DNA of 64,000 nucleotides from Verrucomicrobiia bacterium (GCA_035495615.1 DATJFP010000005.1:340-64339); one strand, 5' to 3'; numbered from the stretch's first letter, positions 2,263-25,723 are shown. Notes: generated by a model from the letters alone, not told the origin. Made by a program: numbers and translations.

Positions 2263-2331
2263 TTGCCCCCTCGCTTTTATTTAATAAAAAAATTTGCGAA
2301 CACGGTTGATCCAACCGATGAAAACAGCCGC

Positions 2332-5466: not shown

Positions 5467-5474
5467 GTTTTTCC

Positions 5475-5491
5475 ATTATACTCCCCCCCCC
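5475..5491 (-). promoter_or_regulatory. TATAAT -10-like hexamer (minus strand) immediately preceded by a G9 (plus-strand C9) homopolymer tract, 9-30 nt upstream of the longest CheB-CheR start
   Basis: The minus strand reads GATGGGGGGGGGAGTATAATGGAAAAACTTGGATCC; the homopolymer is plus 5483-5491. Confidence 0.3.
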
Positions 5492-5867
5492 ATCTAAATG
5501 CGCCCTTTTCTCTAAAAAATTATTTTTCTTCGTCGGGGTTCGCCTGACAGAGCGGGCACCGCTCTTTTGTGCTCATTTCTGCTCCCTATTTCCCACTTAC
5601 CTGCGAATCATGCTTGGCTCCAGGGCGCTCACCCCCTCTCGCGCCACCAAACGTGCGCTCCTTATTCGTCGCGCGGCGATTGCCCATGAGGGCGGCGCTC
5701 GCTCGCTTCGACCCCTGTAAAAAAAATTACGCCCGACAGGGGTCGGCCACTACGGCTCGCGGACGAGCCTGCGTCGCCTCCCCTCACTCACTGTCGCGCG
5801 GCCTTCGGCTAGCGCGCTCTTCCGGCCATAAGGCCGGCGTTCGTTCGCTTCAATTCTTGCCGGAAAA

Positions 5868-5941
5868 TACGCCCGGCAGGAATTGAACCTGCAACCCTCA
5901 GTTCCGAAGACTGATGCTCTATCCAATTGAGCTACGGGCGC
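5868..5941 (-). tRNA. tRNA-Arg (anticodon TCG)
   Basis: Reverse complement GCGCCCGTAGCTCAATTGGATAGAGCATCAGTCTTCGGAACTGAGGGTTGCAGGTTCAATTCCTGCCGGGCGTA; anticodon loop CUUCGGA gives anticodon UCG. Confidence 0.85.
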
Positions 5942-6046
5942 AAACAACCTTGCTTTTGATCAATCGAAGTTTGCGCTTCCCCGCGAGGCCTTCCTTGAGC
6001 CGAGACGGGGCCGTACCTGCGCAGCCGGCGCAGGTGCGGGCGCGCA

Positions 6047-7009: not shown

Positions 7010-7042
7010 TTGCCTAGGTCTCAGGGGGTTTGAATCATAATG

Positions 7043-7115
7043 TGGGCAGGGACGGAATTGAACCGCCGACACAGGGATTTTCAGTCCCTTGCTCTACCGA
7101 CTGAGCTACCTGCCC
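7043..7115 (-). tRNA. tRNA-Phe (anticodon GAA)
   Basis: Reverse complement GGGCAGGTAGCTCAGTCGGTAGAGCAAGGGACTGAAAATCCCTGTGTCGGCGGTTCAATTCCGTCCCTGCCCA; anticodon loop CUGAAAA. Confidence 0.85.
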
Positions 7116-7259
7116 TCATTATAAACTTTTGAAGCGAGGAGGATTCCTCACTCGCTGATAGGTAGGAAACCTTGTGAAATTATAGGGATGCGGGGATGAA
7201 AGTCAATGACTCAAACAGGCGGGTCAGGAGGGGCAGGACGCCCTGCCCCTCCCGTGTGT

Positions 7260-10200
7260 TTACATTTTGACTTCAACGAGCGGGCCCCCGCGGTCGGAGG
7301 CCAGTTCGAGCATTTCCGAGACTCTCAGCTTGAACAAGGCGCGCAAAATTTTGTTGCCGTTTTCGCGGCCGAGAAGAAGCGTGATCATCCGGATCTTCTG
7401 CGCATGGAATTCTTTATTCTCGTCCACTTTGATCTTGTAGTTGTTGATTTCCCCGTTCGGGAGGACTTCAAGGACGGTTTCGACGACCTTTCCGGCATCG
7501 TCGATGAGCCGGACCCCGATTTTAAGGGGCCCCGTTCCGCCCGCATTGTCCAGCAGGCTGCCGCCGAGGGCAAGCCCGACGGAACCGTCCGCTCCCGCGG
7601 AGATGAAACCATTGGGATCCGGACTGCCGAGCACGATCGTCCCCAGGGCCTTCGCGCTGCTCCGCAAATCAAAGCGGACGTCGAGCTCCTTGTTGCCCTG
7701 CGCGTCCTGCACTCGCGAAGGAGTCAGAAACGCGTTGTTGGAACGCTGCATGGAAACCGAAAGACGATTCAGGACCTGGACCGCGGTGCTTGAGGCCTTG
7801 CTGTTGCCGACGATGACCGGCGCCTGCAGGCGCGAACCGCCCAGCATGTATTTGATCGCGCCTTTGTTGTCCGCGGTCTTGTTGAGATTCCTGTCCATGT
7901 TGAATCCCCAGGCCACGATGGCCGAGGCGTCGAATCCCTCTTCCCCGTTTTTGCCCACGTTCAAGACGAAATTCTGCAGGTCGGTCCCGAGCTTCAGGAC
8001 CTGCTTGCTCATCCTGCCGTTTTTATCTTGGAACCAAACTTCCATGAAAGAGCCGTTTCCGGCCGCGATCACGAAATCACGGTTGGAGAAATTCTGCGGT
8101 GCGGTGAATTTGAACATGGCGCCGACTTTCGCGCCGCCCGACGCCAGGTGGAAACGCATGGTGTCGTTTTCGAGCGTCACAAAGCCGGAATTCACGCCGA
8201 AAGATTCCTGCTTCATGTCGCCCAGGCTCGTCAATGCGGCGCTGTTATAAGCGCTGCCGTACGTGTAGGGATCCGCCGCGGCAAGAGCGGAAATCTGCGG
8301 CTTGATCCCGAACTGAATCGTGCATTGCCCGCGTTTGGCCGCGCCGTCTTTGTTCTTATGGCGAAAGACGATCGAGGTCACGGCGCTGATGTCGAAGCCG
8401 GGAATGCTGAATCCGCCGAGAGGAAGGTCGGTGAATTCCGCGCCCATGGCCACGCCGTTGACGGTGTACTCATGGCCGTCTTTGTCTTTCAAAATCAGGG
8501 TCACGTTTTTGAGCTCGCCTTTGTACTGGATGTTGTGCGGCTGGCTCAAATCCAGCGACTGCCCGGCGGGCATATCGATCTTCACGTCCGAATACGCGTT
8601 CGTCGCGGAAAGATCGGAAATGAAGGTGATCACGCGCTTGTTGTCTGAGGTGATGACGTCCTGGGTGATCCTGCCGTAGCCGATGGCTTTGCCCGCGTCG
8701 GACGACGTGCTGGAACCCGTGAAAGAAATTTCCGCGCCCGACGGCAAGCTCACCGGATCAGCCGGCACGTTGCGGTCGTACGGATTTTTCGGGAAGGGCG
8801 AGCCGATGTCGATTTGGACGTCGGCGCCTTTTCCGCTGAGCGTCACGATCGCGGAGGCCTGCATCACGGCTCCGTTGTCGGCGGAATACGTAAGCGCCAG
8901 GACATATTTTCCGGCAGTCCCGGCCGCGGTGCTCGGAACAAATTGAATGCTGAGGATCTTGATGTTCGGCGCCTTGAAAAAGCTGATGCCCGCATCCGCG
9001 GCCGCTTTCTCATAGGCCGCGAGGAGCTTGTCCTGCAGCAGATTGGGCACGTTGTGCAGCGCCATCCGGAACAGATCCCCGGACACTCTGCCGTCCCTCA
9101 CCACGAAATCGCGGTGGGCCTTCACGAAATTGATGACAATGCCGCGTATGTCGCGGAGAGACGGCCCCATGGCGAGCATGTAATTGACGAACTGGAAGAC
9201 GTTCATCAAATAATTGCCTTCGCCCGGATGGAATTCGCCGACCGTTTTGGCATCCAGTCCCGCGAGGACAAGATAACCTTCCGGCGGCAGCCATCTGCCG
9301 GAGCCCATTCTTTCCATTTCCGACATGAGGACGGCGGCAAGGTCTTTTACGGACACAACAAGCGTGGCGTCCGCTCCGGTTTCGATGCGCACCGACGACT
9401 GCATGATCTGCGTGTAGAGCGCGGTGAGCCGGCTCATCACGTCATGTTCCAGCGCAAGCCCCTGGTCCGAACCCGGGCCCTGGAACGGGAAAACAACGAG
9501 CCCGCCGTGTTCCGGCGTACGCGGCTGAAGGGCCTGGATTTTCGCGCGCAATTCTTCCAGGATCGCCCTTGCCTTGGCGGACAGGTCTTCGAGCAGCTTG
9601 TCCAGGGAATCAAACTGGCTTTCGGAAATCACGTCGCCGACCTGGACGGACTTGAAAAGGTCCTCGATCTGCTGACGGCTTGCGGCCAAAGCCTCGCGGA
9701 TCTGAATTTCCGGATCCGGAGCGGCCTTGTCCTCCATGTTCGTGATCGAAGTATTGGGAGCCAAATTGACGATTCTCAATTTATAGCCCTGCGGCACCTC
9801 GATGACCGTTCCCGGTTCGAGCGTCGCCATGTCGACGTCCACGCTGTAGAGATCAATGGACATTCCGCCGTCAGGCGTAGGCGCGGACGGCGTCACGCGC
9901 ACGGTGAACTGCCCCATCATCACGGGACGCGTGCAGCTCATGTTGGGTTCTTTCCAGCCGAAGCAGCCGTCTTCGACAAAGCTCACCAGGACATCTCCTG
10001 CGCCTTTCGCGTCGAACTCGTAATCGCGGCTGTCGTTCCTTACGTCCGCGTGATTGAAACGCAGCAGTTCGCTGCCCGCGAACGCCGCCCTTTCCTGATC
10101 CGTCGGATAGGAAACAACGGGAGGCTCGACGTTCCTGTCGACGGAAGCAAGGATGATCAAAGCATCCTGCACGTCGAAGACGCCGTCCTGATTCACGTCA

Positions 10201-13200
10201 AAATTCATCTTTAAAATTCCGGCGGCCGGATCCGCCGAAAGCAGGTGCTCTTTGAAAGGTTCTCCGTCGTTCAGCGTCGCGTCTTCGGCTGCGGCCCCGT
10301 CATCGATAATCAGCTCGGCTCCGGACACGGCCGCGTTTTCCGTGTTGGGAATAAACGGCAGCGTCCACCAGAGCATCTTGTTGTAAAGCCCCGACAGGGC
10401 CTGATTCAGATCCGCCTTGCTTACCACGCCGTCGTTGTCGAGATCCGAATTTGCGATGAGAACATCCGTCAGCGCATCCACGGAAAATTCGGCGTCAAAG
10501 GACGTGGTGACGTTTTCGCTGAAAGGCGCGGACGTCGAATAAGCCAGGAATTTAACGGCTCCCTGCTTGTCCGTTTTCACGCCGATGAGAGATTCGAAGC
10601 CGTCGAAGGTAATGGCCAAACCGCCGTTGGTGGTCTTTCCGAAAGCATCCATGGCGATGAAATACTGCCCGTCGCCGATGCGGCCTTCCTTGATCGCCAG
10701 GCGGACCGCGTCCAGCATGGCCTGATGCCGGGGATTCAAAACCCCGTTGCGGAATTCCAGCATCATGGATTCGCCGTTCGAGAGCTTCACTTCATAAAGA
10801 TGGGTCTTCACGTACATCAGCTGCCGGAAAGCCGGAAGCGCGTCGCCGTGCCCCACAAACTCCGGATAAAGGCCTTCCTGGAAATCGATGGATTCCTTGG
10901 CTTCGCCGTGCTCGAGCACCAGGTCGCCGTAGCCGGCAAGAATCCCGGCTTCCGCCGCGGCCCATTCTTCGTCACGGGCTTTGATCTTGGCTTCGAGATC
11001 CGAGATCAGCCCCGGAAGTTCGTCATGGCGTTTCACGGCCGCGGCAATAAGATCCCGCAGCGCCTGTTCCATGTCACCCACGCCTCCGATCGCGTCTCCA
11101 GCCTTGTCCGCAAGAGCCTTTGCATCGTCGAGATTGCCCGCGTCCAGCGCCTTTTTCAGCGCTCCCGCGATCTCGTCGAGCCGGGCGATCAGCATTTCAT
11201 AAGCCGGCATGGACTCGGGCCTCATGAGAAGCATTTCGGGATCCATCTTCCCATTCAAAATCTGGTTGAGCTTCTTGAGTCTCTCTTCGAGTTCCTTGTT
11301 CATGCCCCTGGACTTGATGAATTCCTCGCCCAGGCCGCGGAGCTCGGCGATGGCGGAATCAAGCGCCGCCACGATTTCCTTATAATTAGGATCTTCCGGC
11401 TTGATGTTCTCAAGCTTCGCCGCCTGCGCGAACAGGTCTTCCAGAGTGTGGAAAAGAATTTTCCGCTCCGTGCCGTCCGAGAGGTGGATCACCGCGATGC
11501 TGCCGCGCGAGAGCGTGACGTCCAGGCTGTCGATGACGCCGTCCTGATTGAGATCCGAAACCGCGGAGCTCGGGACCGGGATCGCTCCACGAATCGTCAG
11601 CGTTGAGAGTTCGCCATGCGCGCCGGTCCTGTTGATTTTCACGATCACGCCGCTGTTGGCGTCGGAATATTCAAACTTGTTGATGACCTGCAGGACGTTC
11701 TCTTCGCCCTTACCGTCTCCTTGGGTGTATTCATAAACTACGTCGATATTGCCGGGCGTGCCGCCGGCGTATTGGACATAGCGCATCGTGATGCCCTTTT
11801 CCGCGAGAGGATAGCGGATAAGGGGCCGCGAACCGCGGGGCGCGGGAGGATAAATCATGGTGTGCATGGTCGCGCACATGCCGTCCGCGTCGAAAGAGCA
11901 TTGATAGTAGTCCATGCCGTTGTAATCGATTTCCTTGAAGACCTGGTCCGCGGCAAAACAGGCCGCGCCCTTGGGGCAATAGCGGCTGAACATGCTGACC
12001 CTGTCCACGGTGTTGTTGTTCCACATGTTCTGGTCGTAAGAAACCGAAATGTGGACGAGGTTGTGCGACTCACCCGTGATTTCCTGAATCGTGACCGGGC
12101 CCTCATAGAAAAGCTCCGCGGAAACGAGCATCAGGTGCTTCGGCTGGCGGCCAAAATACATCAGAGGAATCGCGTCGTCCTTCATTTCCACTTGTTCGCC
12201 GTCGGCCTGCGCCGTTTCGAACATGAGCGCGTCGGCTTCGTCAGACGGCGCCAGGGTGCTCATGCGCAGCTCCGAGCCCGGTTCGGCGGCGATCATGTCT
12301 TCCGATAAATCCACCGTGACCGGATCAAGCATGATGGGCATGAGACGTTTCGGTTCGACCGGATTCTCCTGGAACGTGAATTCCATGTCCGAGGGAATGA
12401 CGAATTCGCCCAGTGGATCGATTTCCGCGGGCTGGATGTGCGTGCCTACCGCTTCACCGCTGAAATGGATGGACGCAATGCCTGCATCCATGTCGATCTT
12501 GATCGTCATGAGTCCTTTTTCGATCCAGGACTGAACTCTGTCGTTACCCAGGCCGTACGTGCTTCCCAGATCGGCCAGGACCGCTTCACGCACCGCGGTT
12601 TCCGGAATTTCCGTATCTTCGATAGGCTGGACGTCGTTGACTTCGTAGAAGAGGCCCATCATTTCGCTCATGTGGTTCAGAGAGCCGGTCGCCTTGTAGC
12701 GCTTGCCGTCGGCGTTGAACTCGATGTTGTACGTGACAAGCGAAGCGCAGAATTTGCCGGCTTCGCAGGGCGACATCGTGGAGACGCCGTCTTCGAACTT
12801 CTCGATCTTGATGTTCTTGAAGTCCACGTTCAGATTGAGAGCGAGCTCCGTGCGGAAATGATCCTGCAGCGAAAGCGGCGAGAAATTCCAATCCGCGAAC
12901 TGCCGCATCACCGCGGTCTGCATGTCGTCCTGTGGGTGGAATTCGAAAGCCACGATGACTTCCTGGCCGGGAATGACTTCGCGCGCCTGGATGCCTTCGG
13001 CCTTGTCCGCGTTGAGGAGCAGCGGGCCGGGGGCCTGGATGTAACGCAGATTCGGATTCACGGTCACCGAAGCCAGGAAATGCCCGTTGAAATCCTGATA
13101 AATCGGATAAGGCCCCATGTTCGGGTCTTTGGGAAGCCCGTCTGAATTCTGAATCGCGACGGGAGGCAGGATCAAAGCGGCGCGCATCAGGTGGACATGC

Positions 13201-16200
13201 GCTTCTCCGGCAACAGCCTTGAAAACAAATTCCTTCACGTTGCCTTTAATCCTCATGCCCTGCAATTCCAAGGCATCGCCCACGGTGGCCTGGATCAAGT
13301 CGACCAGATCCTTGTCCATCTGACCGACGGGAATGAAATCCCTGTCCCTCACCAGACGGCCCGTGATGACGAAGGTCGTCGTGGTTTTCCAGCCTTCATT
13401 AATAGATACGGTGCTATAGGTCACGATGTCTTCGAAACCGTCTTCCAGAGGCACCCGGTCGGACGGCATGCCGTGGCAGGCGGCTTTCATCATGGGATTG
13501 GCCGGGCAGCTGAACTCGGAAATTTTAAGCGTGTCGATCTCGGTGAATTTTTTCACCGTGCCGTCCGCGCCCGTCCACACGGCCTCGAGCTTTTCCCAAT
13601 TTACTTCGACGACATTGCCGTCTTTGTCTTTCTGGTAGATGAGGCGGCCTTTCTCGTCGAATTTGTTTGTGACGTCCTCATGCGTTTCCGGTTTCGCGGC
13701 AAGAGAAATCAAAAATTCCGCGAGTGGGTCTGTCGCCTGCGCGGCTTCCCCGCCCGCCGAGTCGAGATGGGCGTCGATGGCGCGGCGGTTGCCGTCGGCA
13801 TCGAGATAAACGCCGGTCACGTTCGCGGCGGCGCCGTCATATTCAAAGGTCGCCCGCACGCGGTCATGATGGTCACGGCGCACGATGGAGACGCTCAGGC
13901 TTTTGATCGCGTTCGGCGCGTAGTAGGGATACCGGATCGGCATCTGCGCGCCTCCGGCCGCCGCTTTGTCCGCCAGGACCGAACTTCCGGCCATGGGCGC
14001 CGAGTCATACGCAACCATGGGATACAGAATGTAACCATTCGCATGATCGAACTCCACGCTGCGGGTGTCTTCGAGAACCAGCCCGCCGCCGGACGTGAGC
14101 ACCCTGCGATGGACAGCCGCGAACTGCCCGAACGCGTCCACGGTAAAGCGGTCCATGATGCGGTAGCGCTTGGTGCCGTCAAAAATTTCCGAGGCAATGC
14201 TGATCAGGACGCCGGAATCATCGTACGTGTTATGCTGGCGCGCGGAGTAGACAATCTTTCCCGCCTTGTATTGATCTTCCGAATGGCTCAGGAGGCGCTT
14301 GGACGAAAAATTGGGGTACGGCCAAAACATGCGGTCCGCGGGAAGCGTCGTGACTCCCGTGGCGGTCATGGGAGACGATTTTGCCACCGCATTCGGCTGG
14401 GCGCCAGCCGCGCCATTCAGCAGGACCTTGTCGTAATAATAGGGATAGTAATTGAGCGGGCCGGTGATGTCGTAAGAATCGGAAACACGCTGCGTCAGCT
14501 CGCCGTCTTCGGTGTAATTTTCCTGCTTCGTTTCCTGGAAATTAGGTTCGCCCTTGTCGTCCAGGCGGTAATGGTCGGTCGTCACGGAAGCCATCATGGC
14601 CTCGGCGGGATCCTTGGACGCGAAATAGCTGATGTATTCGCGTTCGACCAGGCCCTTGATCCCCGCGCGGTAATGCGGGTCCCAGCGGACCACGTCGTAG
14701 ACCGCGAGCGGATAAATATTGCCCGGTCCGGAATCCTGCATCGGGTTCGAAGGCGAATACTTGGGGTCATACCGTTCGGTCCATTCGTTCAAGAGGACGT
14801 TGTCCGGGCCGTAATCGCTGCCGCGGATGAGAAGCAGATTGCCGGTGTCGGCGTCATACCGGAAAGACTGGACGTTCCGGCCCTGGACCGTCAGGGGCTG
14901 ATCGCCGTATCCCGAAAAAGTCCGCGTCGCGGCTTTGATCACCTGCCCTTTGGCGTTGAAGGCCTTGCTCGTTTCGTAGCGGTAGGTTTCTTTGCCGTCA
15001 TCGAAATTGAAGCTGCTGTTGGCGGAGACGCTGGTCTTCATGCTGCCGTCGTCGCGGTACGTGATGTTCAGTTCGTTTCTCCATGTCACCTTGCCCTGAT
15101 AAAGCGATTCGGTCACTTCGCTGACCAGCTTGTCGGTAATGACGCCCGCGGCATCCGTCAGGAACGTGCGCGTGGTCGTGGTCTCGCTCGAGACCGCCCC
15201 ATTCGAGCTGTACGTGACGTGCTTGGAGACTTCGTTGCCCGCGGCATCGTATTTCGACTGCTCGAGCGTCTCGTTGGAATAGGAATAGTTCGGTCCGGTG
15301 CTGGTAGAAACGGTCTTCTTCTCGAGTACGCGGCCCGCTTCATCCCGGGTGTAAGTCGTTTCGGTCTTGCTCGAGCTCTGCCAGCTTCCGGTATTTTCGT
15401 AGATGTCGATTTCGCGGAGCAGATTGCCCGCGGCATCATATTCGAAGGTCTGCTCGGACGTGGAAGCGCTGCTCTGCCCCTGCGGGTATTGGTAATCGCT
15501 TTTCGAGACCGCGCTGAGAAGCTTGCCGGCGTCGTTGCGCGTCTCGATGCGGGAAGAAGTGCCGTGCCCCTGGTCCTGGCCGTCCAGGAAGCTCTGCCAC
15601 GACTGCTCCTGCTTGAGAAGATTCCCGTTCGCATCATAGGATTCCTGGGTCGTGCTCTTCGACTCGGAAGTCTTCGGGATGCCGTCGGCATCCGTGTAAA
15701 AGCTCATGGAAGACGACACGACTGTCTTATCATTTCCGTTGTACGTCGTCATCGTCATCGAGGTCCACGTCTTTTCCATTTCGCCCGTCTTGGCATTCAG
15801 GCCGAGGCTTTCGGAAGCTTCCTCGGTAACACGGTCTTTGTCGTCGAAAGTCCGGATAACGGAGTACTGAGACGTGAGGCCTTTGTCATCGTAGGAAAAT
15901 GATTTGTAAGAGAGCTGCTGACCCGAAGCGGACTTTTCTTCCGTGGAAGAAAGGAGAAGACGGCCCGCATCAATGCTGACCGTGTAGGACGCCTGAGAAC
16001 CATCCTCGTTTTTGTGGATGAAAATGATCTGTCCGTCCTGCGAAGAAGGCACTTGAGGATTGGACAAATTCGCGAGCGCTTCGTTGCCCGACGCCGCAAA
16101 AGGATGGCGGAATTCCGACTGGTCGAGGACGTAAGACTCCTCGAGATTCAGCTGTTTGTAAATGATCGCGCGCGCCTGTTCGGCAACATCTTTTTCCGAA

Positions 16201-16568: not shown

Positions 16569-16760
16569 TTACTGCCCCCTTGAAGAGAATTTTTGAATGT
16601 ATTTGCTTATTATTGCTATATTTCTAATTACATCTCGGGCAACTATATTAATCTCTTTAAAAGCCTACCTTATAAACTAGCCCAAATCAACGCTGCATGT
16701 AACATCTTTTAAAGTACACTTAAAAACTATATCAGAACGGCAAATCTATCTATCAAAAAG
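16569..16760 (-). promoter_or_regulatory. AT-rich (sharp GC drop) promoter or regulatory island directly upstream of the giant gene; contains direct repeats AACTATAT (x2) and TCTTT(T)AAAG (x2)
   Basis: Composition contrast with the GC-rich flanks; position immediately 5' of the 7260-16568 minus-strand start. Confidence 0.4.
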
Positions 16761-16856
16761 TGACATCCGGTCAAAAAGGAACGCTGAGCGGTCATTTCAG
16801 GCTGGCAAATGCAGGCGGGGTTCTCGCTAAGACTAACATTCCTAACTCGCTGGGCA

Positions 16857-16890
16857 TAAAAAAAGCGGGAATGTTCTTCCCGCTTTTTTT
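16857..16890. terminator. Bidirectional rho-independent terminator (A-run, GCGGGAA/TTCCCGC stem, T-run) downstream of the 1152-aa gene
   Basis: aaaaaaaagcgggaatgttcttcccgcttttttt read directly; sits 12 nt after the stop of the 16902-20360 gene. Confidence 0.75.
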
Positions 16891-16901
16891 GAAATACCAG
16901 A

Positions 16902-19900
16902 TTAGATTTTCACGTCAACGTCATCGGAGGACGCCCGGCGCGCGGCCAAACGTCTTTCTTCGATCATTCTTTTGATCTTCTCGCGGCGGCGCGTTTCTTT
17001 CATCCGGTCCATCATACTGTCCAGCCATCCCGTCTCTTTTGAATCTTTATGCCGGACATCCGCATCCATCCGCTTCTGCACATTTTCCGGAGAAGGCTTA
17101 GGGGGCATGAGCGGATCCAGCTTTGTTTCTTGCTGGGTCAATATTTTGTCTTCCGGACCGGCTGCCATGGAGTTTTCGTCCGCGATATCATTCGCGGGCA
17201 ATTCGGGAATTCCAACGATCCGGCTTTCTTTGCCCGGCTCCGGAGAGAACATAAAAGGCTTTAAGCGCCCCTGGGGAGCGTCTTCATCTTCGTTTTCATC
17301 AGTCTTGGCTTTGTCCTCTTTGTCTTTGCGTTTTTCCTTTTCGTCTTTATGTTCAGGCTGGTCCTCGTCGATCTTCACCGTGCGAAAGCCGACCGGCCGA
17401 ACCACCAGATGCACGACAGCGCCTTCGACGATATCGCCGCTGCCTTGATAGTCCTGAGAATTTCCCGCCCCCATGTTGCTCTTGAACGTAAAGACATAGG
17501 AAGCGTTCGAAGAAAGCATGGCGGAAGCGGACGCATCCGCCGCTCCTTCGGTGCCCGCGGCCGGATTCGGCTCAATTTTCAATTTGCTGATTTGTCCCAG
17601 CTCTTCCTTCATCTCCAAAGCCCGCCGTATAAGCTGGCGATGGACGTTCAGCATTTTCTGAGACTTCAGCGTGGCGGTGTTCGCGGTTTTAATATCTACG
17701 CCGGTTCCCTCCTGGGAAACCGTCGGATGAATTTCCTCAACAGTCGCGGAAGAATCTCCCTGACCCGCAATTTCTTCCTTGGGTTCCACGGAAGAAACGG
17801 GGGCGTCCTGGACAACGGGTTCCTTGATCGTTTCTCCGGAAGAAACCGCGGGCTCTTCAAGGATGGGCTTAAGCGGTTCTTCAACAGGCGTGTCTTCGAT
17901 CGTGCCTTCATGAATTACCTGATCCCCCGCCGTTTCCGTGGCAGCTATTCCGCTCCCCTCTACCGCGAGCGTCCTTCCCTGCTCATCGACCGAAGAAGAT
18001 TCCGCGGGCACCTCTTCATGACTGACGGCCGTCTCACCGGATACAATGCCGCCTTCGCGGCCCTCCACGGGGACCTCGCTTCCGTCTGTCACAGTCTCTT
18101 GCGCGCTCACCGCCTCACCTTCTCCCGCCGGCTGCGCGGTGTCCTGATGAATCTCTTCTCCGGATGCCGGGTTCTGCGGCTCCTCGGCATTCATGATGTC
18201 GGATGCAGAGGCGCCGGAATTCTGGCCGGTGCTTTCCTCGGTGATAATGGCGGCGTGTCCGGGCATTTCGATGGGATCTGCGTCACGATGCTCCGCCTGG
18301 ATATCGCCGCTCGCCGCAACCTCTCCCGCAGGCTCTTCTGCCGGCTGGCTGGAATCTTCGTGGATCTCTTCCGCGGCGGCGTGCTCTTCAGAGGCAAGAG
18401 TTCCCGAGAAGATGGGCAGTCCATTCACCATCGTGCCGTCGAATCCCAAAACAACGTCCGTTTGCTTTTCTTTGAATTCCGCCATGTAACGGCGGATGGG
18501 TTCCGTAAGCCGCACGGCGAATTTGCCGCTCGACTCCAGGCTTTTCAGGCCGACGAGAATGGCCGAATCCGGCTCCAGATTCGGAATAATCCCCGCGAAG
18601 TGTCCGGTGATATCGAAGCTCCGGCCGACCTCATCCACGATTTTTCCATTCCCCATTTCGACATTTGCGATATGGAGGCTCAGCTGCCTGTGCGGCCCTT
18701 CGCCGGTTCCGTTATTTTCTTCCATCAAATAAACCACTTTGTGGGCGCAATCTTCTCCCGTGCATTCTTTTTTAGGGAAATTGGTCAGAACCATGACCCG
18801 CGCGCCGCTATCGTGATGAAACCCAGCAAGCATGTCCTCGACGTCTCTTTTGACGGACGGCTGCGCGGGAGTTTCCGGATGCTGCGGGTGTTCCGGGTGC
18901 TCGGGGTGTTCCGGATGCTCAGGATGCTCCGGATGTTCGGGATGCTCTTGGGCATTCTGCTCGACATGTTCCTCAGCCGGATTCGCGGCATGTTCTTCGA
19001 CCGGCTTGTCCCTATGCTCCTCAGCCGGCTTATCGATATGCTCTTCAATCTGTTCGTCGGCGTGCTCTTCGGCGGGTTTCTCCACATGCTCGGCCGCATG
19101 CTCCTCGACCGGCTTCTCGACATGCTCTTCAGCCGGCTTGTCGGCATGTTCCTCAGCGTGTCCGAGAGCTTCGTGCAATTTGGCTTGGATTTCTTTTGCC
19201 TCATCCAAAGCCTTCGCCACCTCATCGACGATCTTACCGTTCGCCTTGGTCCAGGCTACGGTATCGCCCATTTCCTTTTGGATGTCGGCGACCGTTGTGG
19301 GAACCGTGTTTGATTCTACGGTTTTCACATCGGCGTCATCGACCTGTCCATCCTCGTTTTTATCAAAAACCTCAACCGCCCGATGGTTAATCCGGCTTAG
19401 TTTTTCCACTCCAAGATTGAGATCATCGATGTTGTGCGCCGTCAGGCTTTGAAGGCCCGCCGCCAAATCGACATTGGCCCCCTCAAGCTGGGACTGAAGT
19501 TCCCCTTCCGTTTGAGAAAATTCCTGCGCGATCTTTTTGAGTTCGTTCAGCTGGTAAACCTGGGCCGAGACATTCTTGAGAAACACAATCCTTCTTTCCA
19601 TGAGATCCCGGCTGTTGAGCTCCGGCTTCGGCTCCCGTTCCGCTTTCGGTTCGGGCTTATGATCTTGGACGGGAGTTAATTTGATCTCGACATGGAAAGG
19701 TTCTCCCTGTCCGGGCTCACTTCTGCGGACGCTGGCGATGCCCGTAAAACGGCGGCCTTCGGGATTTTCGATTTTGACTTCAAACACCGCTTTGTCTGAG
19801 GTCGGCTCCAGTTCGTAGCGGCCTTTGTCGCCGAATTTTTTCGTCAGGCGCTGGATCACCATGTCTTTAAACGACACCGCATTGTCGGAACCGCCGAGGC

Positions 19901-20360
19901 TTCCCGGAAGAAGGGCCGGCGCCTTGTCATGCTCGCGGCGCTCTTTGGCTTCGCGGATTTTTTCTTCAAGCGGGAGGCTGCCAATGTGGACGGCTCTGCC
20001 CGACTTGACGTCGAAGATTTCCGTTTTGCGGTCCGTTATTTTACTTTCTGCTTCTTTGGCGTAATCCGCGTAAGGAGGAAGGCCGCTGTGCTCTTCTTGT
20101 TCTTTCCGGCGCTCGATGGCTTTGTCGATTTGGCCTACGCCGATAACGGGCGTGATCCCATTATCGGTCTTTTGGATTTCGGCCTGCTCTTCCGCGAATC
20201 CCAGCGGACCTCCCTGCGTTAATACCATGGCGAAAGAAATCGCCACCGCCAAAGATTTCAGGCCGATGTTGGAGCGGATGATCATAGATTCCCCCTCAAA
20301 AAGATTTTTCCAAGAATGAAGACTTTTGCTAGTCGCCGTACTATAGATATCGGTGTTCAC
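16902..20360 (-). CDS. Large secreted acidic His/Glu/Pro-rich tandem-repeat protein of unknown function, with one dockerin/EF-hand-like loop (FDKNEDGQVDDAD); likely start at the internal MIIRSNIGLKSLAVAISFAMVLTQ (about 20285)
   Basis: 1152-aa ORF. Signal-peptide-like segment. Repeats xEEHxxKP (8-aa period, about 9 copies) and HPE (x7). Very acidic low-complexity C-terminal half. Confidence 0.6.
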   Translation of the reverse strand: MNTDIYSTATSKSLHSWKNLFEGESMIIRSNIGLKSLAVAISFAMVLTQGGPLGFAEEQAEIQKTDNGITPVIGVGQIDKAIERRKEQEEHSGLPPYADYAKEAESKITDRKTEIFDVKSGRAVHIGSLPLEEKIREAKERREHDKAPALLPGSLGGSDNAVSFKDMVIQRLTKKFGDKGRYELEPTSDKAVFEVKIENPEGRRFTGIASVRRSEPGQGEPFHVEIKLTPVQDHKPEPKAEREPKPELNSRDLMERRIVFLKNVSAQVYQLNELKKIAQEFSQTEGELQSQLEGANVDLAAGLQSLTAHNIDDLNLGVEKLSRINHRAVEVFDKNEDGQVDDADVKTVESNTVPTTVADIQKEMGDTVAWTKANGKIVDEVAKALDEAKEIQAKLHEALGHAEEHADKPAEEHVEKPVEEHAAEHVEKPAEEHADEQIEEHIDKPAEEHRDKPVEEHAANPAEEHVEQNAQEHPEHPEHPEHPEHPEHPEHPQHPETPAQPSVKRDVEDMLAGFHHDSGARVMVLTNFPKKECTGEDCAHKVVYLMEENNGTGEGPHRQLSLHIANVEMGNGKIVDEVGRSFDITGHFAGIIPNLEPDSAILVGLKSLESSGKFAVRLTEPIRRYMAEFKEKQTDVVLGFDGTMVNGLPIFSGTLASEEHAAAEEIHEDSSQPAEEPAGEVAASGDIQAEHRDADPIEMPGHAAIITEESTGQNSGASASDIMNAEEPQNPASGEEIHQDTAQPAGEGEAVSAQETVTDGSEVPVEGREGGIVSGETAVSHEEVPAESSSVDEQGRTLAVEGSGIAATETAGDQVIHEGTIEDTPVEEPLKPILEEPAVSSGETIKEPVVQDAPVSSVEPKEEIAGQGDSSATVEEIHPTVSQEGTGVDIKTANTATLKSQKMLNVHRQLIRRALEMKEELGQISKLKIEPNPAAGTEGAADASASAMLSSNASYVFTFKSNMGAGNSQDYQGSGDIVEGAVVHLVVRPVGFRTVKIDEDQPEHKDEKEKRKDKEDKAKTDENEDEDAPQGRLKPFMFSPEPGKESRIVGIPELPANDIADENSMAAGPEDKILTQQETKLDPLMPPKPSPENVQKRMDADVRHKDSKETGWLDSMMDRMKETRRREKIKRMIEERRLAARRASSDDVDVKI
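18880..19165. repeat. In-frame coding tandem repeats inside the 1152-aa gene: 9-nt HPE repeats (about 18880-18945) and 24-nt AEEHxxKP repeats (about 18958-19165)
   Basis: Periodic ggatgctc and atgctcctcgaccggcttctcgac units visible in the sequence. Confidence 0.7.
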
Positions 20361-20487
20361 TCAAAAGGTTACTTCATGATAAAAAACTTTTCAAGCGCCT
20401 TTAAAAACTACATATAAACCAAGGCATCATGTGAGGTTACGCGGGTTTAAGGCGCTTTAAAAAGTAGGATAAGTCTGGCGGGTGGGG

Positions 20488-21261
20488 TTACCAGCTGCCC
20501 AAAGAGGCTTTCAGCTGGCGCGCATAACGCCGTGAAAGCGGTATTTTGGAAGCCAGGGGAGGCTTCAGGAGAATCTCGAAATTCCCGCTGAACATCGGAG
20601 AAACTTTTTCGACTTTGTCGAGATTGACGATATACGCCTTGTGGGTCTGCGCGAATCGCGAAGCATCCAGATTCTCCAGCAGGTCTTTGAGCGTGGAATT
20701 GACGATCAGTTCTTTGCCCTGGAGCACCGCGATGACTTCGGTGTATTTGGCGTAGAAATAATAAACTTCCTCGGGATTGATCACGACGCGGTCCTTCGCA
20801 TTCCGGGCATGCCCCATCCATTTTTTGAGCATTCCTTTTTTTGCCAGATGTTCTTCGAGGGCCATGAGCCGTTCCTTGGCCGCACCTTTCATCTGCACCA
20901 GTTCCTCGGCGTGTTCGAACGTTTTCCGGAGGCGCGCCGGATCATAAGGCTTGAGAATGTAATCGATGGCCTTGGCCTCAAAGGCCTCGATCGCGTATTG
21001 ATGATAAGCCGTGGCAAAAACGACCAGCGGCGGCGAAGGCCAGTCCGCCAGCTTTGCCGCGACTTCGAGCCCGGAGATGCCCGGCATTTCGATGTCGAGA
21101 AAAACCACGTCGATATCCGGCTGGGCTTTCAGCTTTTTCAGGGCTTCTTCGCCGGTCGAGGCGGTTTCCGCGACCTGGAACGCCGCGTTGGCACTGACGA
21201 AGCGCGACATCTCGTCCCGCGCCAAAGGTTCGTCATCGACGATCATGACTTTGATGGCCAT
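20488..21261 (-). CDS. LytTR-family response regulator (receiver plus LytTR DNA-binding domain)
   Basis: MAIKVMIVDDEPLARDEM receiver N-terminus, DIDVVFLDIEMPGISG, C-terminal LytTR-like segment; overlaps the upstream kinase gene by 1 nt. Confidence 0.8.
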   Translation of the reverse strand: MAIKVMIVDDEPLARDEMSRFVSANAAFQVAETASTGEEALKKLKAQPDIDVVFLDIEMPGISGLEVAAKLADWPSPPLVVFATAYHQYAIEAFEAKAIDYILKPYDPARLRKTFEHAEELVQMKGAAKERLMALEEHLAKKGMLKKWMGHARNAKDRVVINPEEVYYFYAKYTEVIAVLQGKELIVNSTLKDLLENLDASRFAQTHKAYIVNLDKVEKVSPMFSGNFEILLKPPLASKIPLSRRYARQLKASLGSW

Positions 21262-22862
21262 TATTTTTCCCCTTGAGATACAGGCAGCCTCACCGTGACG
21301 GAAAGCCCCTGCCCAGCCTTGCCCGAAAATTTCAACCGATGCGCCTTCCCGTAAAGCCGCACGAGCCGCTGGTTGATGTTCTGAAGGCCGATGCCGAATT
21401 CTCCGGAAGCATACTCCCGGCTCAGGATCTTTTCCATGGTGTCTGCATCGGCTCCCGCGCCGTCATCCTTCACTTCCACTTCCAGGCATTTGCCGCTTTC
21501 CGAGATCCGGATCGTGAGCCTGCCGCCCTCTTCTTTTTTGCTGATGCCGTGCTTGATCGCGTTTTCGACAAGCGGCTGCAGGACGAGGAATGGGATCTTC
21601 GCGTTCCAAAGCGCTTCGGGGATTTCGATGACTTTCTCGACCCGGAGCCTTTCCTGGAAACGCGCCTTTTCCAGCTCCAGGTAGGAATCGATATAGCCCA
21701 GCTCCTCGCGCAGCGTGATTTTGTCGTCCACGCGCTTGATGGCCCGCCGGAAGAAATCCGCGAGGTTCAAGACGAGCTTGCGGGCTTCGTGCGCGTTCTC
21801 CCGGTGGCAGATGGCCGAAATGGTATTGAGCGCGTTGAACAGGAAATGCGGGCTGATCTGCGCCTGAAGGAACAAGAGTTTGGTCTGGAGAAGTTCCGTT
21901 TCCATTTCACGCCGGTGATCTTCGCGCAGAATTCCGGAAACAACGGCCAGAAAAACAAAAACCGCGCCGCCTTCCATCAAAGCGAGAAAAAGAATGCTCA
22001 TCAGGGCGTAAGTCCAGGAGAGTTCCCGGGCCAGAGGGATGTAGACCAGCGCGCCGTGAAGCGTGCCGGCCGCGGCTCCGGTGAGCAGGCCGGCTTTGGC
22101 CGTATTGCGAAACGAGCGTATCGAGCGCGCGCCCAAACCGCCCAGCGTTCCCGCAGCAAGCGCGATCCAAAAATAAACGTGCAGCTCGGGATTCAGGACC
22201 CACCGGAACGCTCCCACCAGAAAGCCGGAAAGCACGCCCGGCCACAAGCCTCCCAGAAGGCCTCCGATGGCCAGGAGCACGACCTGGATGTCGAAGAAAG
22301 CCCATGCGGATTCGCCGTAACGGGACACGTCGAAAAATGAAAAAAAGAGCGCCGTGATCACGGTCATCATGGCCAGATACACCTTGCCCATGACCGAGAT
22401 CCGGTCCGCGTGCAGCATGCGCCTGAAATACGGAACACGGATCAGGAGAAAAGCAAGGAGCGCGAGGATCGCGTATTTCTGAATGATTTCGCGGTAGATC
22501 TCCAGCCATTCCAGCCTGAAAGTTCTTTGAAGGTGTTCGGGGCGCTGCGAGTTGATGAGCGCGAGGTCTTCCAGCGCTTCTCCCAGGATCGTGTCCGCTT
22601 TCGAAAATTCGCCGTTCATCATGGCCTGAGAAGCCATCCGGATTTTGGGAAGGATGTGGAGGATGTCTTCTTCCCCGACGTTCAGCTCCCCGGCAAGGGC
22701 CACGGCCTTATCGTATTTGGCCACGACTTCTTTTTGAGACGGGTCTTCAGCGTGCGAAGGCGCGGAAGGGAAAAGAAAGAAGCAGAGGACAAAAAGAAAG
22801 AAAGCGGAAAAAAACCGCTTAGGAATGGAGCTTTTTCTCGAGGATTCTGCGGCGCTCTTCAT
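21261..22862 (-). CDS. LytS-type sensor histidine kinase (multi-TM 5TMR-LYT-like sensor plus His_kinase/HATPase)
   Basis: Multiple TM helices. H-box SPHFLFNALNTISAI. HATPase G-boxes. 533 aa. Confidence 0.75.
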   Translation of the reverse strand: MKSAAESSRKSSIPKRFFSAFFLFVLCFFLFPSAPSHAEDPSQKEVVAKYDKAVALAGELNVGEEDILHILPKIRMASQAMMNGEFSKADTILGEALEDLALINSQRPEHLQRTFRLEWLEIYREIIQKYAILALLAFLLIRVPYFRRMLHADRISVMGKVYLAMMTVITALFFSFFDVSRYGESAWAFFDIQVVLLAIGGLLGGLWPGVLSGFLVGAFRWVLNPELHVYFWIALAAGTLGGLGARSIRSFRNTAKAGLLTGAAAGTLHGALVYIPLARELSWTYALMSILFLALMEGGAVFVFLAVVSGILREDHRREMETELLQTKLLFLQAQISPHFLFNALNTISAICHRENAHEARKLVLNLADFFRRAIKRVDDKITLREELGYIDSYLELEKARFQERLRVEKVIEIPEALWNAKIPFLVLQPLVENAIKHGISKKEEGGRLTIRISESGKCLEVEVKDDGAGADADTMEKILSREYASGEFGIGLQNINQRLVRLYGKAHRLKFSGKAGQGLSVTVRLPVSQGEK

Positions 22863-24333
22863 TGATTTCCGAACGTTGATAGTGGATTCCGGGAGGCAGA
22901 TAAGGTCCCAGATTTGCCGCGGCCAGGGCGATATGGGAGGCCACGTTCAGCCCGTCTTGTTTATATCGGGCGTCGGCGCGTTTTCCTTCATTCGCGGCCT
23001 TGCGGTAGAGCTGCTCGAGGACGCGGTAAGCCTCGGCCTTTTCCTGCTCGGTCATGCGCTTGTTCATCAGAATGCTCAGCCAGGGATGGATCTGGTCGAG
23101 CGACTGGAAACGCAGCAGCAATTCGGTCTGCCGCATCATTTCTTTTTCTTTGTCCTGCAGGTCGGAAAGCGCCTGCGCCTGGACAGCATGTTCGGTGCCC
23201 GGAGCCGGCATGATAAGCGACGGCACGGGGCGTGAAGAGGCCAGAATGCGCTGCCGCGCGGCCTTCAACTTGAGCACCTTGATAAGCAGCCGTTTCTTGC
23301 GCGCCCGCTCCGGAAGGTAAACGCGGCGCATCCTCTCCGCGGTTTGCGCGAGCGCTTCGTCCACGCTGCGGAAAAATTGGTTCAAGAGGCGGTCGATCTG
23401 CCCGTCGAGCTCCCGGTCTTCCTGTTTCTTCCCTTCCTGTTTTTGGGAATTTTCCTGCAAATATTCCGTGAGCATCTGGAAAATTTCGTCGTAATGCTTT
23501 TGGCGTATCTGCCTGGCCTCTTCGGAATTGGCGCGCACGATTTCCACGGGCGCTTCCTCCTCGCGGACTTCCGGCTTATCGGAAGCGACTTCTTCCTTTC
23601 TTTCCTCGATCGGAGCGGCGATAGGCACCCGGGCTGCCGGAACATTTTCCAGAGGACCGGAAGTGACTTCGACGGATTCGATCTTGAGGGAAACGGTTTC
23701 CTTGTCTTCCGCCGCGGGCTGCTCTTGCGAAGGCGCGCCGGGAACCGCCTGCTGGTAAGCGGCCGAAGCCTTGGAGAGAAAATCATTCGCGTCTTCGTTG
23801 AGGGGTTCAATCGGAATAATTTCAGGGGATTTTTCCGGTTCCGGCGCCTTTTTTTCTTCTTCGGGCGGCGCGCTTGCTTCGGCCGTCATCATGCTGTACA
23901 CCGCGGCTTTGAAGGCCGCAAAGAAAATGACTTCATTGCGGACACCGTTTTCGTCCTCTTCATTCGCCGTGATGCCGTCTAAGACATTATTGATTTTTTC
24001 TCCGGCGCGCTTTTTCTGATCCGCGTTCAGCCGGCTGCCCTCGGGCTCTTTTTTGACTTCTTCCTGGGGCTGATCTTCTTCAGCAATGGGCGAAAGCGGA
24101 TCTCCATCCAGAAATTTTTCCCAGCTCGGTCCCTGGGAAGCGTCGGCCTCAGGGATGGCGCGTTTGGCTTTGTTATATTCGATGGCCGGCGCGGAAGACT
24201 CCGTCAGCGAGGCTTCTTGATCCTGATAAGATCCGGATCCGGCGAAAGCGGCAGGGAGCGCCTGCGAGAAAGCTAAAGAAAGACAGATCGCAAGTGACAG
24301 GACACGTGTTGGAAGATCGGTTTTTCGGTTCAT
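22819..24333 (-). CDS. Secreted acidic coiled-coil protein of unknown function
   Basis: 504 aa. Signal peptide MNRKTDLPTRVLSLAICLSLAFSQALPAAFA. Glu/Pro-rich middle. Basic coiled-coil C-terminus. The 3' end overlaps the lytS start by 44 nt. Confidence 0.5.
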   Translation of the reverse strand: MNRKTDLPTRVLSLAICLSLAFSQALPAAFAGSGSYQDQEASLTESSAPAIEYNKAKRAIPEADASQGPSWEKFLDGDPLSPIAEEDQPQEEVKKEPEGSRLNADQKKRAGEKINNVLDGITANEEDENGVRNEVIFFAAFKAAVYSMMTAEASAPPEEEKKAPEPEKSPEIIPIEPLNEDANDFLSKASAAYQQAVPGAPSQEQPAAEDKETVSLKIESVEVTSGPLENVPAARVPIAAPIEERKEEVASDKPEVREEEAPVEIVRANSEEARQIRQKHYDEIFQMLTEYLQENSQKQEGKKQEDRELDGQIDRLLNQFFRSVDEALAQTAERMRRVYLPERARKKRLLIKVLKLKAARQRILASSRPVPSLIMPAPGTEHAVQAQALSDLQDKEKEMMRQTELLLRFQSLDQIHPWLSILMNKRMTEQEKAEAYRVLEQLYRKAANEGKRADARYKQDGLNVASHIALAAANLGPYLPPGIHYQRSEINEERRRILEKKLHS

Positions 24334-24467
24334 GCGGAATACTTTTTCGGGAAAGTCCCGATTCCTTCCGATAAAAACTTTATACCGCTATTTATAAAGT
24401 ACTCAAGGATGCTTTTCAGAACAAGTCATAAGGGCACCCATCATGTAGCAAAATCAATCAGGAAAGA

Positions 24468-24947
24468 TCAGGCTTGAGAGGATTCGTCTTTGCGGACAAG
24501 CCAGTTGTGAAGACTGAAGGGATGACCGGAGGTAAAAAAGAATTTAAAACCGATGAGGGCATTGGTGAGATCAACGATCGCCATTTGGCGCGTGGTGAGC
24601 TGCGGTCCGTACTGGCCGAAGCAGCCGCAGGAACCTCCGGCCGTGCCCCAGAATGACGGGCTCGACACCAGGACCGCGACGAGACTGGCCGACAGAATTC
24701 CAAGCACAAGCGAGCTCAGCCGCGGCGCGTATCCCAGAATGACAAAAACGCCTACGATCCACTCCACCCACGGCAATCCGCGGGACAGCGGGTCGAGCAG
24801 GAAAGGCGGGATGATTTCGTAGTGGCTGAGGACCCCGCGGAAATTTTCGTGAGGCTCCATCAGTTTCAGGAATCCCGCATAAGCATAGATGCCGCCGAGG
24901 AAAAAGCGCATCGTAAGGTAAAGGGCGGTCTCGAGTGTTTTCTTCAT
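24468..24947 (-). CDS. DoxX-family membrane protein (probable redox partner of the adjacent DsbA-like protein)
   Basis: Start trimmed to ATG at 24945-24947 (MKKTLETALYL...). Four predicted TM helices. C-terminal GGSCGCFG motif. Confidence 0.55.
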   Translation of the reverse strand: MKKTLETALYLTMRFFLGGIYAYAGFLKLMEPHENFRGVLSHYEIIPPFLLDPLSRGLPWVEWIVGVFVILGYAPRLSSLVLGILSASLVAVLVSSPSFWGTAGGSCGCFGQYGPQLTTRQMAIVDLTNALIGFKFFFTSGHPFSLHNWLVRKDESSQA

Positions 24948-24949
24948 GC

Positions 24950-25723
24950 TCAGCTTGCCGCGGGTGCGGGGGTTGAAGGCGTGGGCGTGGGCATTGCCAC
25001 GGGGACCGATGCTGGCGCAGCCTCGGGTGCCGATGCCGGCGCGGCCTCGGGTGCCGATGCCGGCGCGGCCTCCGGCTCCTGCGCTTTTTCGGCGGGAAGC
25101 TTCAGCGTCCTGTGAATAATTTCTTCCGCTTTGGTTTTCAATTCCAGATGCCCGACAGCCCGTTCTTTGTTGATAAAAAACGTGGGCGTGGAACGCACCT
25201 GCAGCCTGTCTCCTCCCTGGCGCTCCTGCTTGATCTTTTCCTGAATGCCGGTATCGGCCAGGCACGTGGCGAAAGCATCCACATCGAGGGAAAGGATCTG
25301 CGCGTCCTTAAGAAAAAGCTGGGTCGGATTTTGAGGGCCGGACCAGACCGCCTGTTCCTGGAACAGAAGGTCGTGGTATTCCCAGAATTTTCCCTGCACG
25401 GCCGCGCACTCGGCCGCCTGATGCGCGATGGAAGACCACTGGTGCCCGGCGAGCGGGAAATGATGGAAGACCACGCGGATTTTGCCCGGATACTTTTCGA
25501 GAAGCGCCTTCAGTACCGGCTGCGCGCGCTGGCACGCGGGACATTGGAAATCGCTGTACTCCTGGATCTCGATGGGGGCGTCGGCAGGGCCTTTGACTTT
25601 CGGCTCGGAAGCATACGCCTGCGGCAATTCTCCCAGATGCACGAAATTACGCCGGACGACCAGGACCCCGGAGACCAGAAACACGGTGAGAAAAAATCCG
25701 GTCAGCATGTATCGAGCATTCAT
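24950..25723 (-). CDS. DsbA-family thiol:disulfide oxidoreductase with C-terminal Pro/Ala-rich EAAPASAP repeat tail
   Basis: N-terminal TM anchor. CPAC active site (YSDFQCPACQ). Thioredoxin fold. Tail EAAPASAPEAAPASAPEAAPASVP. Confidence 0.7.
   Translation of the reverse strand: MNARYMLTGFFLTVFLVSGVLVVRRNFVHLGELPQAYASEPKVKGPADAPIEIQEYSDFQCPACQRAQPVLKALLEKYPGKIRVVFHHFPLAGHQWSSIAHQAAECAAVQGKFWEYHDLLFQEQAVWSGPQNPTQLFLKDAQILSLDVDAFATCLADTGIQEKIKQERQGGDRLQVRSTPTFFINKERAVGHLELKTKAEEIIHRTLKLPAEKAQEPEAAPASAPEAAPASAPEAAPASVPVAMPTPTPSTPAPAAS
25005..25078. repeat. Three tandem 24-bp in-frame repeats encoding EAAPASAP in the DsbA tail
   Basis: ccgatgccggcgcggcctcgggtg x3 read directly. Confidence 0.75.

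Follow-up and report, generated by a model that had tools for sequence, protein, structure and literature searches.

A conserved LytS/LytTR cassette and a predicted BtsR-type tandem-repeat site upstream of a giant secreted protein gene in an Omnitrophota-like bacterium

We analysed a stretch of 64,000 nucleotides (nt) from a bacterial metagenome-assembled genome (MAG; GCA_035495615.1, DATJFP010000005.1:340-64339), hereafter the window, which contains a sensory cassette with a LytS-family kinase and a LytTR response regulator, followed by the genes of two large secreted proteins and a tRNA gene. All features of the locus lie on the minus strand, and ORF calling, ARAGORN, Pfam, translation and base composition placed them in the order and at the positions given in an initial annotation of the same sequence. 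The first cassette gene encodes p504, a signal-peptide protein of 504 amino acids (aa) (22819-24333; open reading frame (ORF) and translation), and is followed by the kinase gene (21261-22862; Pfam, orthologues and a structure model) and by the gene of the regulator, which consists of a receiver (REC) and a LytTR domain (20488-21261; Pfam). Downstream lie p1152, an ORF of 1152 codons (16902-20360; translation), a hairpin that ends its transcript (16858-16890; folding), a predicted LytTR site of the BtsR type (16764-16793; matrix and pattern search), an AT-rich region of 192 bp that is the promoter/leader region of the next gene (16569-16760; GC content 0.31 versus ~0.58 for the window), and that gene itself, which encodes a giant secreted protein of 3102 aa (7260-16568; ORF and translation). 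The tRNA-Phe(GAA) gene is found at 7042-7115 (ARAGORN; Rfam, 73 bits), and the genes for a MauE/DoxX protein and a DsbA-like thioredoxin are directly upstream of the cassette (24468-25723; Pfam). Rfam detected the tRNA and one sub-threshold chance match over 6.9-24.6 kb and nothing else, and no family matched 16569-16760. Hereafter, related loci are denoted by L-numbers, and positions without an L-number refer to the window.

The identities proposed for the two-component pair in the initial annotation were confirmed. Pfam matches of the kinase were above the cut-offs for 5TMR_LYT (38.8 bits), His_kinase (PF06580, 89.9 bits) and HATPase_c (55.9 bits), and the adjoining regulator, whose start overlaps the kinase stop by 1 nt, matched the receiver (88.2 bits) and LytTR (83.8 bits) families. 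The kinase core matches GanS (PDB 6swj). Pfam found no GAF domain, which in LytS and BtsS is located between the membrane domain and the kinase core, and in an AlphaFold2 (AF2) model made with a 24-sequence alignment (mean predicted local distance difference test (pLDDT) score 80), the last membrane helix continues straight into the kinase helix. According to hydropathy, the AF2 model and the alignment, the N-terminus consists of a hydrophobic signal/anchor helix and a helical segment of ~85 residues, presumably periplasmic, both of which are kept in the orthologues. For this reason, a start at 22862 (533 aa, with an overlap with p504) is more probable than that of the public NCBI annotation, in which the kinase has 487 aa and starts 46 residues later than its orthologues.

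The p504 protein is acidic (pI 5.2) and carries a signal peptide, and its gene overlaps the kinase start by 44 nt. Neither p504 nor its 10 relatives gave a Pfam match. Nevertheless, alignment of the 11 proteins showed a common domain at the C-terminus, in which the motif hHP(F/Y/W)h is nearly invariant, and a hidden Markov model (HMM) built from seven relatives without p504 recognized the p504 C-terminus at the corresponding position (E = 3.4e-4).

When the sensor half of the kinase was used as the query, 26 orthologues with 32-53% identity were retrieved, and 15 loci were read (the window, L001-L003, L084-L091 and L093-L095). The p504-like gene, the kinase gene and the regulator gene were found together in every one of these loci with a readable upstream side (L002 begins at the kinase). 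The upstream signal-peptide protein is 235-560 aa long across the loci, and its gene overlaps the kinase gene by 29-47 nt in six of them (the window, L084, L089, L090, L091 and L095), the values for L084, L090, L091 and L095 being 41-47 nt. Because the accessory protein co-occurs with the two regulatory genes and the C-terminal domain is common to the p504 family, the conserved unit in these Omnitrophota-like bacteria is one of three genes. The DsbA-like and MauE/DoxX pair precedes the cassette directly in four loci, namely the window, L084 (7301-8427), L090 (7035-8158) and L095 (1001-2139). A metagenome scan with the kinase alignment yielded 80 loci, all with generic LytS kinases and none orthologous (0/80), and these were reused as a negative control of 929 kb. 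The source MAG, one of whose hypothetical proteins is identical to the giant, carries the NCBI label 'Verrucomicrobiae bacterium', but every named relative of the kinase comes from an Omnitrophota MAG; the label may be wrong.

In six of the related loci (L001, L002, L003, L086, L087 and L089), the sequence GACCGCTTA-N12-GACC(G/A)CTT(A/G), followed by a conserved TCGCTaTTCCTTCG, was found 17-104 nt past the regulator stop and on the same strand. A scoring matrix was built from these six sites, with the window and L093 left aside. Scanning both strands of the window (128 kb) with it gave a single outlier, GACCGCTCAGCGTTCCTTTTTGACCGGATG at 16793-16764, with a score of 20.2 versus 10.0 for the next best position. 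This site reads GACCGCTCA-N12-GACCGGATG, that is, two 9-bp repeats with a 12-bp spacer and a period of 21 bp, and its first half-site, ACCGCTCA, is of the BtsR type. It lies on the strand of the giant gene within the 333-bp gap before it, with the p1152 stop 109 nt upstream and the giant ATG 195 nt downstream. The initial annotation had proposed a search of the AT-rich island for paired 9-bp LytTR-type repeats with a spacing of about 12 bp, and the pair was found at the upstream edge of that island. The negative control contained no match scoring 18 or more, and a pattern search of the window gave one match versus 0.01 expected. When score, position and strand are combined, we estimate the probability of a chance occurrence at roughly 1e-4.

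L093, which was fetched after the matrix had been built, served as a prospective test and has three tandem repeats at the expected position, ahead of a gene for a 743-aa two-module protein. Altogether, sequence downstream of the regulator was readable in 12 loci, and 8 of these have the site (the window and seven related loci). The half-site consensus of BtsR from Escherichia coli, described by Kraxenberger et al. in 2012, is reportedly ACC(G/A)CT(C/T)A with a 21-bp period. The oligonucleotide from the yjiY/btsT promoter used in experiments as the site of E. coli BtsR (YehT) has the form GACCGCTTA-N12-AACCACTCA, also with a period of 21 bp (PMC4847170), and this proven site scores 18.7 with the matrix from the six relatives. 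The suggestion of the initial annotation that the two-component pair may regulate the giant gene is therefore supported by the outlier in the window, by the six orthologous sites and by the match to the BtsR site, although regulation itself is predicted from sequence.

Several further repeats were noted. Three in-phase half-sites with a 21-bp period, instead of two, are present at L001 3276-3326 and L093 7642-7692. Near unrelated LytS-type kinases in two of the control loci, a looser BtsR-type pattern occurs at L031 9812-9835 and at L039 7525-7548 and 9343-9366; in sequence of this extent, chance alone would give about two matches. In L089, a further site (315-344, score 22.9) is located approximately 120 nt upstream of the p504-like gene, suggesting autoregulation of the cassette in that locus; the matrix scan found no such site upstream of p504 in the window.

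Both the L089 site and the usual position of the element, mostly 17-104 nt past the regulator stop, would be expected if the regulator acted as a repressor, or if the repeat served to autoregulate the cassette operon or to control read-through at its 3′ end rather than to activate the downstream gene, and E. coli BtsR is indeed annotated as a dual regulator. However, in the window p1152 and a strong terminator intervene between the cassette and the site, which nevertheless retains its position relative to the giant gene, and characterized LytTR tandem repeats upstream of genes are usually activator sites (PMC4847170 for YpdB and BtsR). We regard this explanation as quite improbable, and favor control of the giant gene by the cassette through the site.

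What lies downstream of the site accords with this control. The giant protein has an N-terminal signal peptide and no membrane anchor according to hydropathy. Its YD-repeat region (approximately aa 190-930, nt 13779-16001) matched TIGR01643 with 20.6 bits versus a cut-off of 15.8 and contains repeats of the YDxxGN form by regular-expression search. The protein further contains one copy of a Cys-pair/YD-like module (aa 1327-1735, nt 11364-12590; module HMM), EF-hand/dockerin-type loops (nt 11520-11555, 10410-10445 and 10164-10199; pattern search), a beta-rich C-terminal region (nt 7263-8801) and five close Cys pairs (1021/1031, 1268/1274, 1531/1537, 1557/1565 and 2202/2212). It is similar to the giant protein of L002 (BLAST, E = 1e-12), and the module HMM gave matches at E = 2e-22 and 2e-39; the giant thus belongs to a module family. 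The module comprises ~330-430 residues. It opens with a helical stretch (..DL..TFGF....IK.GL.KIKIDL), contains Cys pairs and a YD-repeat-like motif, ITRTDA.G.LLS, and closes with ATITL.DG....I.F..LE.LL..A. No PDB relatives of the giant or of the module were found in sequence and profile searches. A word-index search, a tool insensitive for such queries, returned only the protein itself for the whole giant and nothing for the module alone.

A module-carrying secreted protein is encoded downstream of the site in 6 of the 8 site-bearing loci (L001, at least 1194 aa; L002, 2631; L086, 2838; L089, 2459; L093, 743; the window, 3102). Small ORFs separate the site from the large gene in L086 and L089. 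In the other two loci, the site is followed by a 469-aa secreted protein (L003) or by small Cys-rich proteins, every one of which has a repeat array of its own (L087). Small Cys-rich proteins of ~85-93 aa with a WWAR.../HHCxxC motif are encoded at L086 12431-12988 and at L087 5166-5438 and 13114-13283, and are homologous to each other (E = 3e-12). BtsR-type repeat arrays immediately precede their genes, which in L086 occupy the interval that separates the site from the giant gene, and no homologue was detected in the window.

The leaders of these proteins were also compared. The signal-peptide motif [TSLA]Q..P.[GA][WLFY][AS] has exactly three matches when all six reading frames of the window are searched, namely the leaders of p504 (24267), p1152 (20219) and the giant (16508), all on the minus strand. 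In the relatives it occurs at the giants' leaders only (L001 3584, L002 3099, L086 13059 and L089 4420). This motif could mark a dedicated export or sorting route.

The bidirectional terminator that the initial annotation placed near the p1152 end was borne out by the hairpin at 16858-16890, which is flanked by an A-run and a T-run and is of the bidirectional intrinsic-terminator type. Its folding energy is -23.2 kcal/mol (z = -6.4), and none of 200 shuffled sequences folded as well; a consensus terminator scan missed it.

The p1152 protein is a lineage-specific secreted acidic repeat protein with its own terminator. The initial annotation had described it as an acidic His/Glu/Pro repeat protein, and the counts agree with that: pI 4.8, 20% Asp plus Glu, approximately nine 8-residue (A/V)EEH(V/A)(E/D)KP units and seven EHP units, the repeats being encoded at 18858-19175 (tandem-repeat analysis). 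Translation more likely begins at the ATG at 20285 (1127 aa), because GAGGGGG precedes this codon and a 99%-identical database fragment begins there. No Pfam family matched, and a HMMER scan of 1.84 billion representative proteins returned its own fragment and low-complexity matches to the His/Glu repeats, and nothing else. We also considered p1152 as a degenerate copy of the module of the giant family, and this was rejected (best alignment, -4.5 bits). Since the site is at most 104 nt after the regulator in the relatives and 109 nt after p1152 here, p1152 has the appearance of a ~3.6-kb insertion that separated the regulator gene from its putative target site.

The initial annotation further suggested that p1152 and the giant interact, or have a common partner, through dockerin-like modules. 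Both proteins do contain EF-hand-type Ca loops. In p1152 the loop is DKNEDGQVDDAD (19329-19364), which fits the 12-residue EF-hand/dockerin pattern with 0.001 matches expected per shuffle, and the giant has two strict matches to the pattern. A type I dockerin comprises two Ca-binding loop-helix segments in one domain of ~60-70 residues. However, p1152 has a single loop, and the nearest two loops of the giant start at aa 2042 and 2124, 82 residues apart. For Pfam Dockerin_1, the giant scored 22.1 bits versus a cut-off of 22.9 and p1152 gave no match; the giants of L002 (79 bits) and L001 (25.7 bits) pass it. No protein among the five of the locus matched a cohesin family in Pfam. The loops are therefore single Ca loops and not dockerin domains, and the proposed dockerin-mediated interaction was not supported. 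What p1152 and the giant share is one canonical Ca-type loop and the signal-peptide motif.

The same annotation considered the locus as a possible genomic island, and the synteny comparison it had proposed was made. In L084 and L094, the regulator, tRNA-Phe and ROK genes follow each other with nothing between, and p1152 and the giant gene are absent. Flanking genes common to L084 and the window are GH77, GGDEF, DsbA and MauE on one side and ROK and the M48 peptidase on the other; those common to L094 and the window are ROK and the M48 peptidase. This absence at syntenic positions indicates that the block of p1152 and the giant gene is variable. It also favors a recently acquired island at tRNA-Phe, in which the whole of 7.2-24.4 kb, or at least p1152 and the giant gene, would have arrived by horizontal transfer with its own regulator; the lack of relatives of p1152 in the 1.84-billion-protein scan and the AT-rich gaps that punctuate the block point in the same direction. 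Nevertheless, the cassette itself belongs to the core genome, as its embedding in conserved synteny (GH77, GGDEF, DsbA and MauE) in L084, L090 and L095 indicates.

Codon usage, expected to be atypical in an island, is host-like. The distance of the giant gene was 0.043 (GC content at the third codon position (GC3) 0.75), the most host-like of the genes tested, and that of p1152 was 0.085, within the host range of 0.045-0.131; the GC content of the block is 0.56-0.58. In addition, ORF calls and Pfam revealed neither further long ORFs nor an integrase domain in the block, its junctions showed only short matches at chance level and no flanking direct repeats or tRNA fragments, and the block is on the 5′ side of the tRNA. 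In more distantly related loci, the regulator, the site and the giant follow each other in the same order, so that the arrangement looks ancestral. In a rough neighbor-joining tree of the kinases, made without support values, the site-bearing loci are basal and the window falls inside a clade with the siteless L084, L094 and L091, which suggests that these relatives may have lost the giant rather than this genome having gained it. Thus, of the island proposal, the presence/absence difference next to tRNA-Phe stood, the other hallmarks did not, and we consider recent acquisition unlikely.

Two observations on the neighboring genes were made in the same comparison. In L084, a 7212-aa ORF (15025-21605) is located 2.6 kb further on, after ROK and the M48 peptidase, and has neither detectable similarity to the module family nor a repeat site. 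In the window, extra genes are found at 1636-5942 between ROK and the M48 peptidase, which is directly after ROK in L084 and L094: a tRNA-Arg(TCG), a gene for a CheB-CheR-PAS fusion protein of 1044 aa and a Ysc84-like gene. Within the window, GC content is lowest (0.51) and codon usage deviates most in the CheB-CheR gene.

The explanation that best accounts for the whole, and which we hold to be probable, is that the cassette controls the giant gene through the tandem-repeat site and that the giant is a secreted protein of the attachment type. The cassette would sense an extracytoplasmic cue, possibly with the secreted p504-type protein as a partner. The phosphorylated regulator would most likely bind GACCGCTCA-N12-GACCGGATG at 16793-16764 and, if it acts as an activator, would switch on the AT-rich promoter of the giant gene. 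The giant would then be exported by means of its signal peptide, its Cys pairs probably being oxidized in the periplasm, and the adjacent DsbA/MauE pair possibly helps this oxidative folding. By analogy with the dockerin-type giants of Omnitrophota, the product is probably an extracellular Ca-binding adhesion or attachment protein with YD repeats.

Several results weigh against this explanation. In Markov-simulated sequences of 64 kb, 5 of 200 reached a score of 20.2 somewhere; the six training sites score 36-41, well above the site in the window, whose second half-site GACCGGATG is degenerate. L084, L094 and L091, which are closest to the window in kinase identity, have neither the site nor a giant gene directly downstream, indicating that the link between regulator and giant is not obligatory and may be decaying in this clade. 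A sigma-70 consensus scan of the promoter region was not above chance, and no promoter element could be placed with confidence. The function of the giant is deduced from weak domain signals, and the AF2 model of its C-terminal 513 residues, made from a single sequence, had a pLDDT of 38. Finally, the sensor half of the kinase gave no alignment with E. coli BtsS, so that the cue cannot be read from BtsS.

Some of these results, namely the weak second half-site and the absence of the site from the closest relatives, would also be expected if the pair were an ordinary nutrient sensor of the BtsS/BtsR type that responds to pyruvate, with its real target a transporter elsewhere in the genome and the adjacency and the repeat a coincidence or a relic. 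BtsR is the closest named family of the regulator, the site matches that of BtsR, and the scan for sites covered 64 kb of the genome. On the other hand, the sensor half of this kinase cannot be aligned with BtsS, GAF is missing and a helical segment is added at the N-terminus, the regulator does not reach the NCBIfam equivalog cut-off for BtsR, no transporter gene of the CstA/BtsT type adjoins any of the 15 loci, and in six independent loci a secreted protein of the module family is encoded downstream of the site. A pyruvate sensor of this kind therefore seems improbable to us, and control of the giant gene remains the preferred explanation.

A wider proposal, which we offer tentatively and regard as rather doubtful, is that the cassette is a lineage-specific contact- or host-sensing circuit that times the deployment of attachment proteins by an ultra-small, host-dependent cell of the Omnitrophota type. 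In such a circuit p504 would be an extracellular co-sensor, and the BtsR-type element would mark the entire regulon, which would comprise the giant module proteins and the small Cys-rich proteins and, in certain lineages, would also include the cassette.

Genes of very large size are characteristic of Omnitrophota and are thought to mediate attachment to hosts or prey. The defined regulator, the 30-bp site and the target class offer a first testable regulatory handle on the very large surface proteins of this lineage. Because the site is BtsR-like, binding and reporter assays are feasible in E. coli without culturing the organism, and the matrix can be used to map the regulon across Omnitrophota genomes. 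In addition, the p504-type accessory proteins and the Cys-pair/YD-like module are defined here as two uncharacterized families, as is a distinctive signal-peptide motif that is shared. Among the papers searched, nothing on the regulation of these genes was found: none combines Omnitrophota with LytTR or LytS, and the two preprints on giant genes contain no mention of two-component systems.

We next compared the locus with known systems. E. coli BtsS/BtsR (YehU/YehT) resembles it in the regulator, which has the same REC and LytTR domains and is 34% identical over the full length to BtsR, and in the catalytic half of the kinase (residues 324-527, 37% identity with BtsS). The sites are nearly identical, GACCGCTTA-N12-AACCACTCA in E. 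coli, GACCGCTTA-N12-GACCACTTA in the relatives and GACCGCTCA-N12-GACCGGATG here. The systems differ in the sensor half, which here cannot be aligned, lacks GAF and carries an added N-terminal signal and the ~85-residue helical segment; as there is no alignment, the pyruvate-binding residues of BtsS (Arg72, Arg99, Cys110 and Ser113; PMC10653868) have no counterparts that could be assigned in the window kinase. They differ as well in the secreted accessory protein, encoded here upstream of and overlapping the kinase gene, and in the target, predicted here to be a giant secreted protein and in E. coli a pyruvate transporter of the CstA family, no gene of which (btsT) is next to the site in the window or the related loci. 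Since the regulator scored 155 bits with NCBIfam BtsR, below the equivalog cut-off of 246, the sensor is unaligned and the target is different, the pair is not a BtsS/BtsR orthologue.

The giant was also considered as a dockerin protein, an RHS toxin or part of a tRNA island, and each assignment was rejected on the defining features tested. It has YDxxGN repeats in common with RHS/YD-repeat polymorphic toxins and teneurin-like shells, but, unlike in the toxins, its YD region is N-terminal and is followed by ~2,000 further residues, and Pfam and regular-expression searches found no RHS core motif (DPxGL), C-terminal toxin domain or toxin/immunity pair. Closer is the resemblance to the 'dockerin-type' giants of Omnitrophota (West-Roberts et al. 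2023, bioRxiv 10.1101/2023.11.21.568195), which agree in lineage (as judged here from the kinase relatives), secretion, EF-hand/dockerin-type Ca loops, RHS/YD-like beta-rich and CBM-like parts and a proposed role in attachment. The present giant is, however, much smaller (3,102 aa versus at least 30,000 aa), stays below the cut-off for Dockerin_1 and is without TSP3 repeats, a C-terminal membrane anchor and a SecA-like domain. Type II secretion-like loci and PilZ genes are reported near the Omnitrophota giant genes, and the terms 'regulator', 'two-component', 'response regulator' and 'LytTR' do not occur in that report (bioRxiv 10.1101/2023.11.21.568195).

Among the other LytTR systems, AgrA, YpdB, VirR and PlnC/D likewise use paired repeats of 9-11 bp with spacers of 11-13 bp, and YpdB also combines one strong with one weaker half-site (PMC4847170). 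Unlike AgrA and YpdB, the half-site here is of the BtsR type, and no peptide-pheromone or quorum-sensing genes are present. Apart from the missing GAF domain, the kinase domains, the adjoining REC and LytTR regulator and, at the predicted site, the 9-bp repeats with a 12-bp spacer are those of the family, and by domain content and site architecture the system is a LytS/LytTR system.

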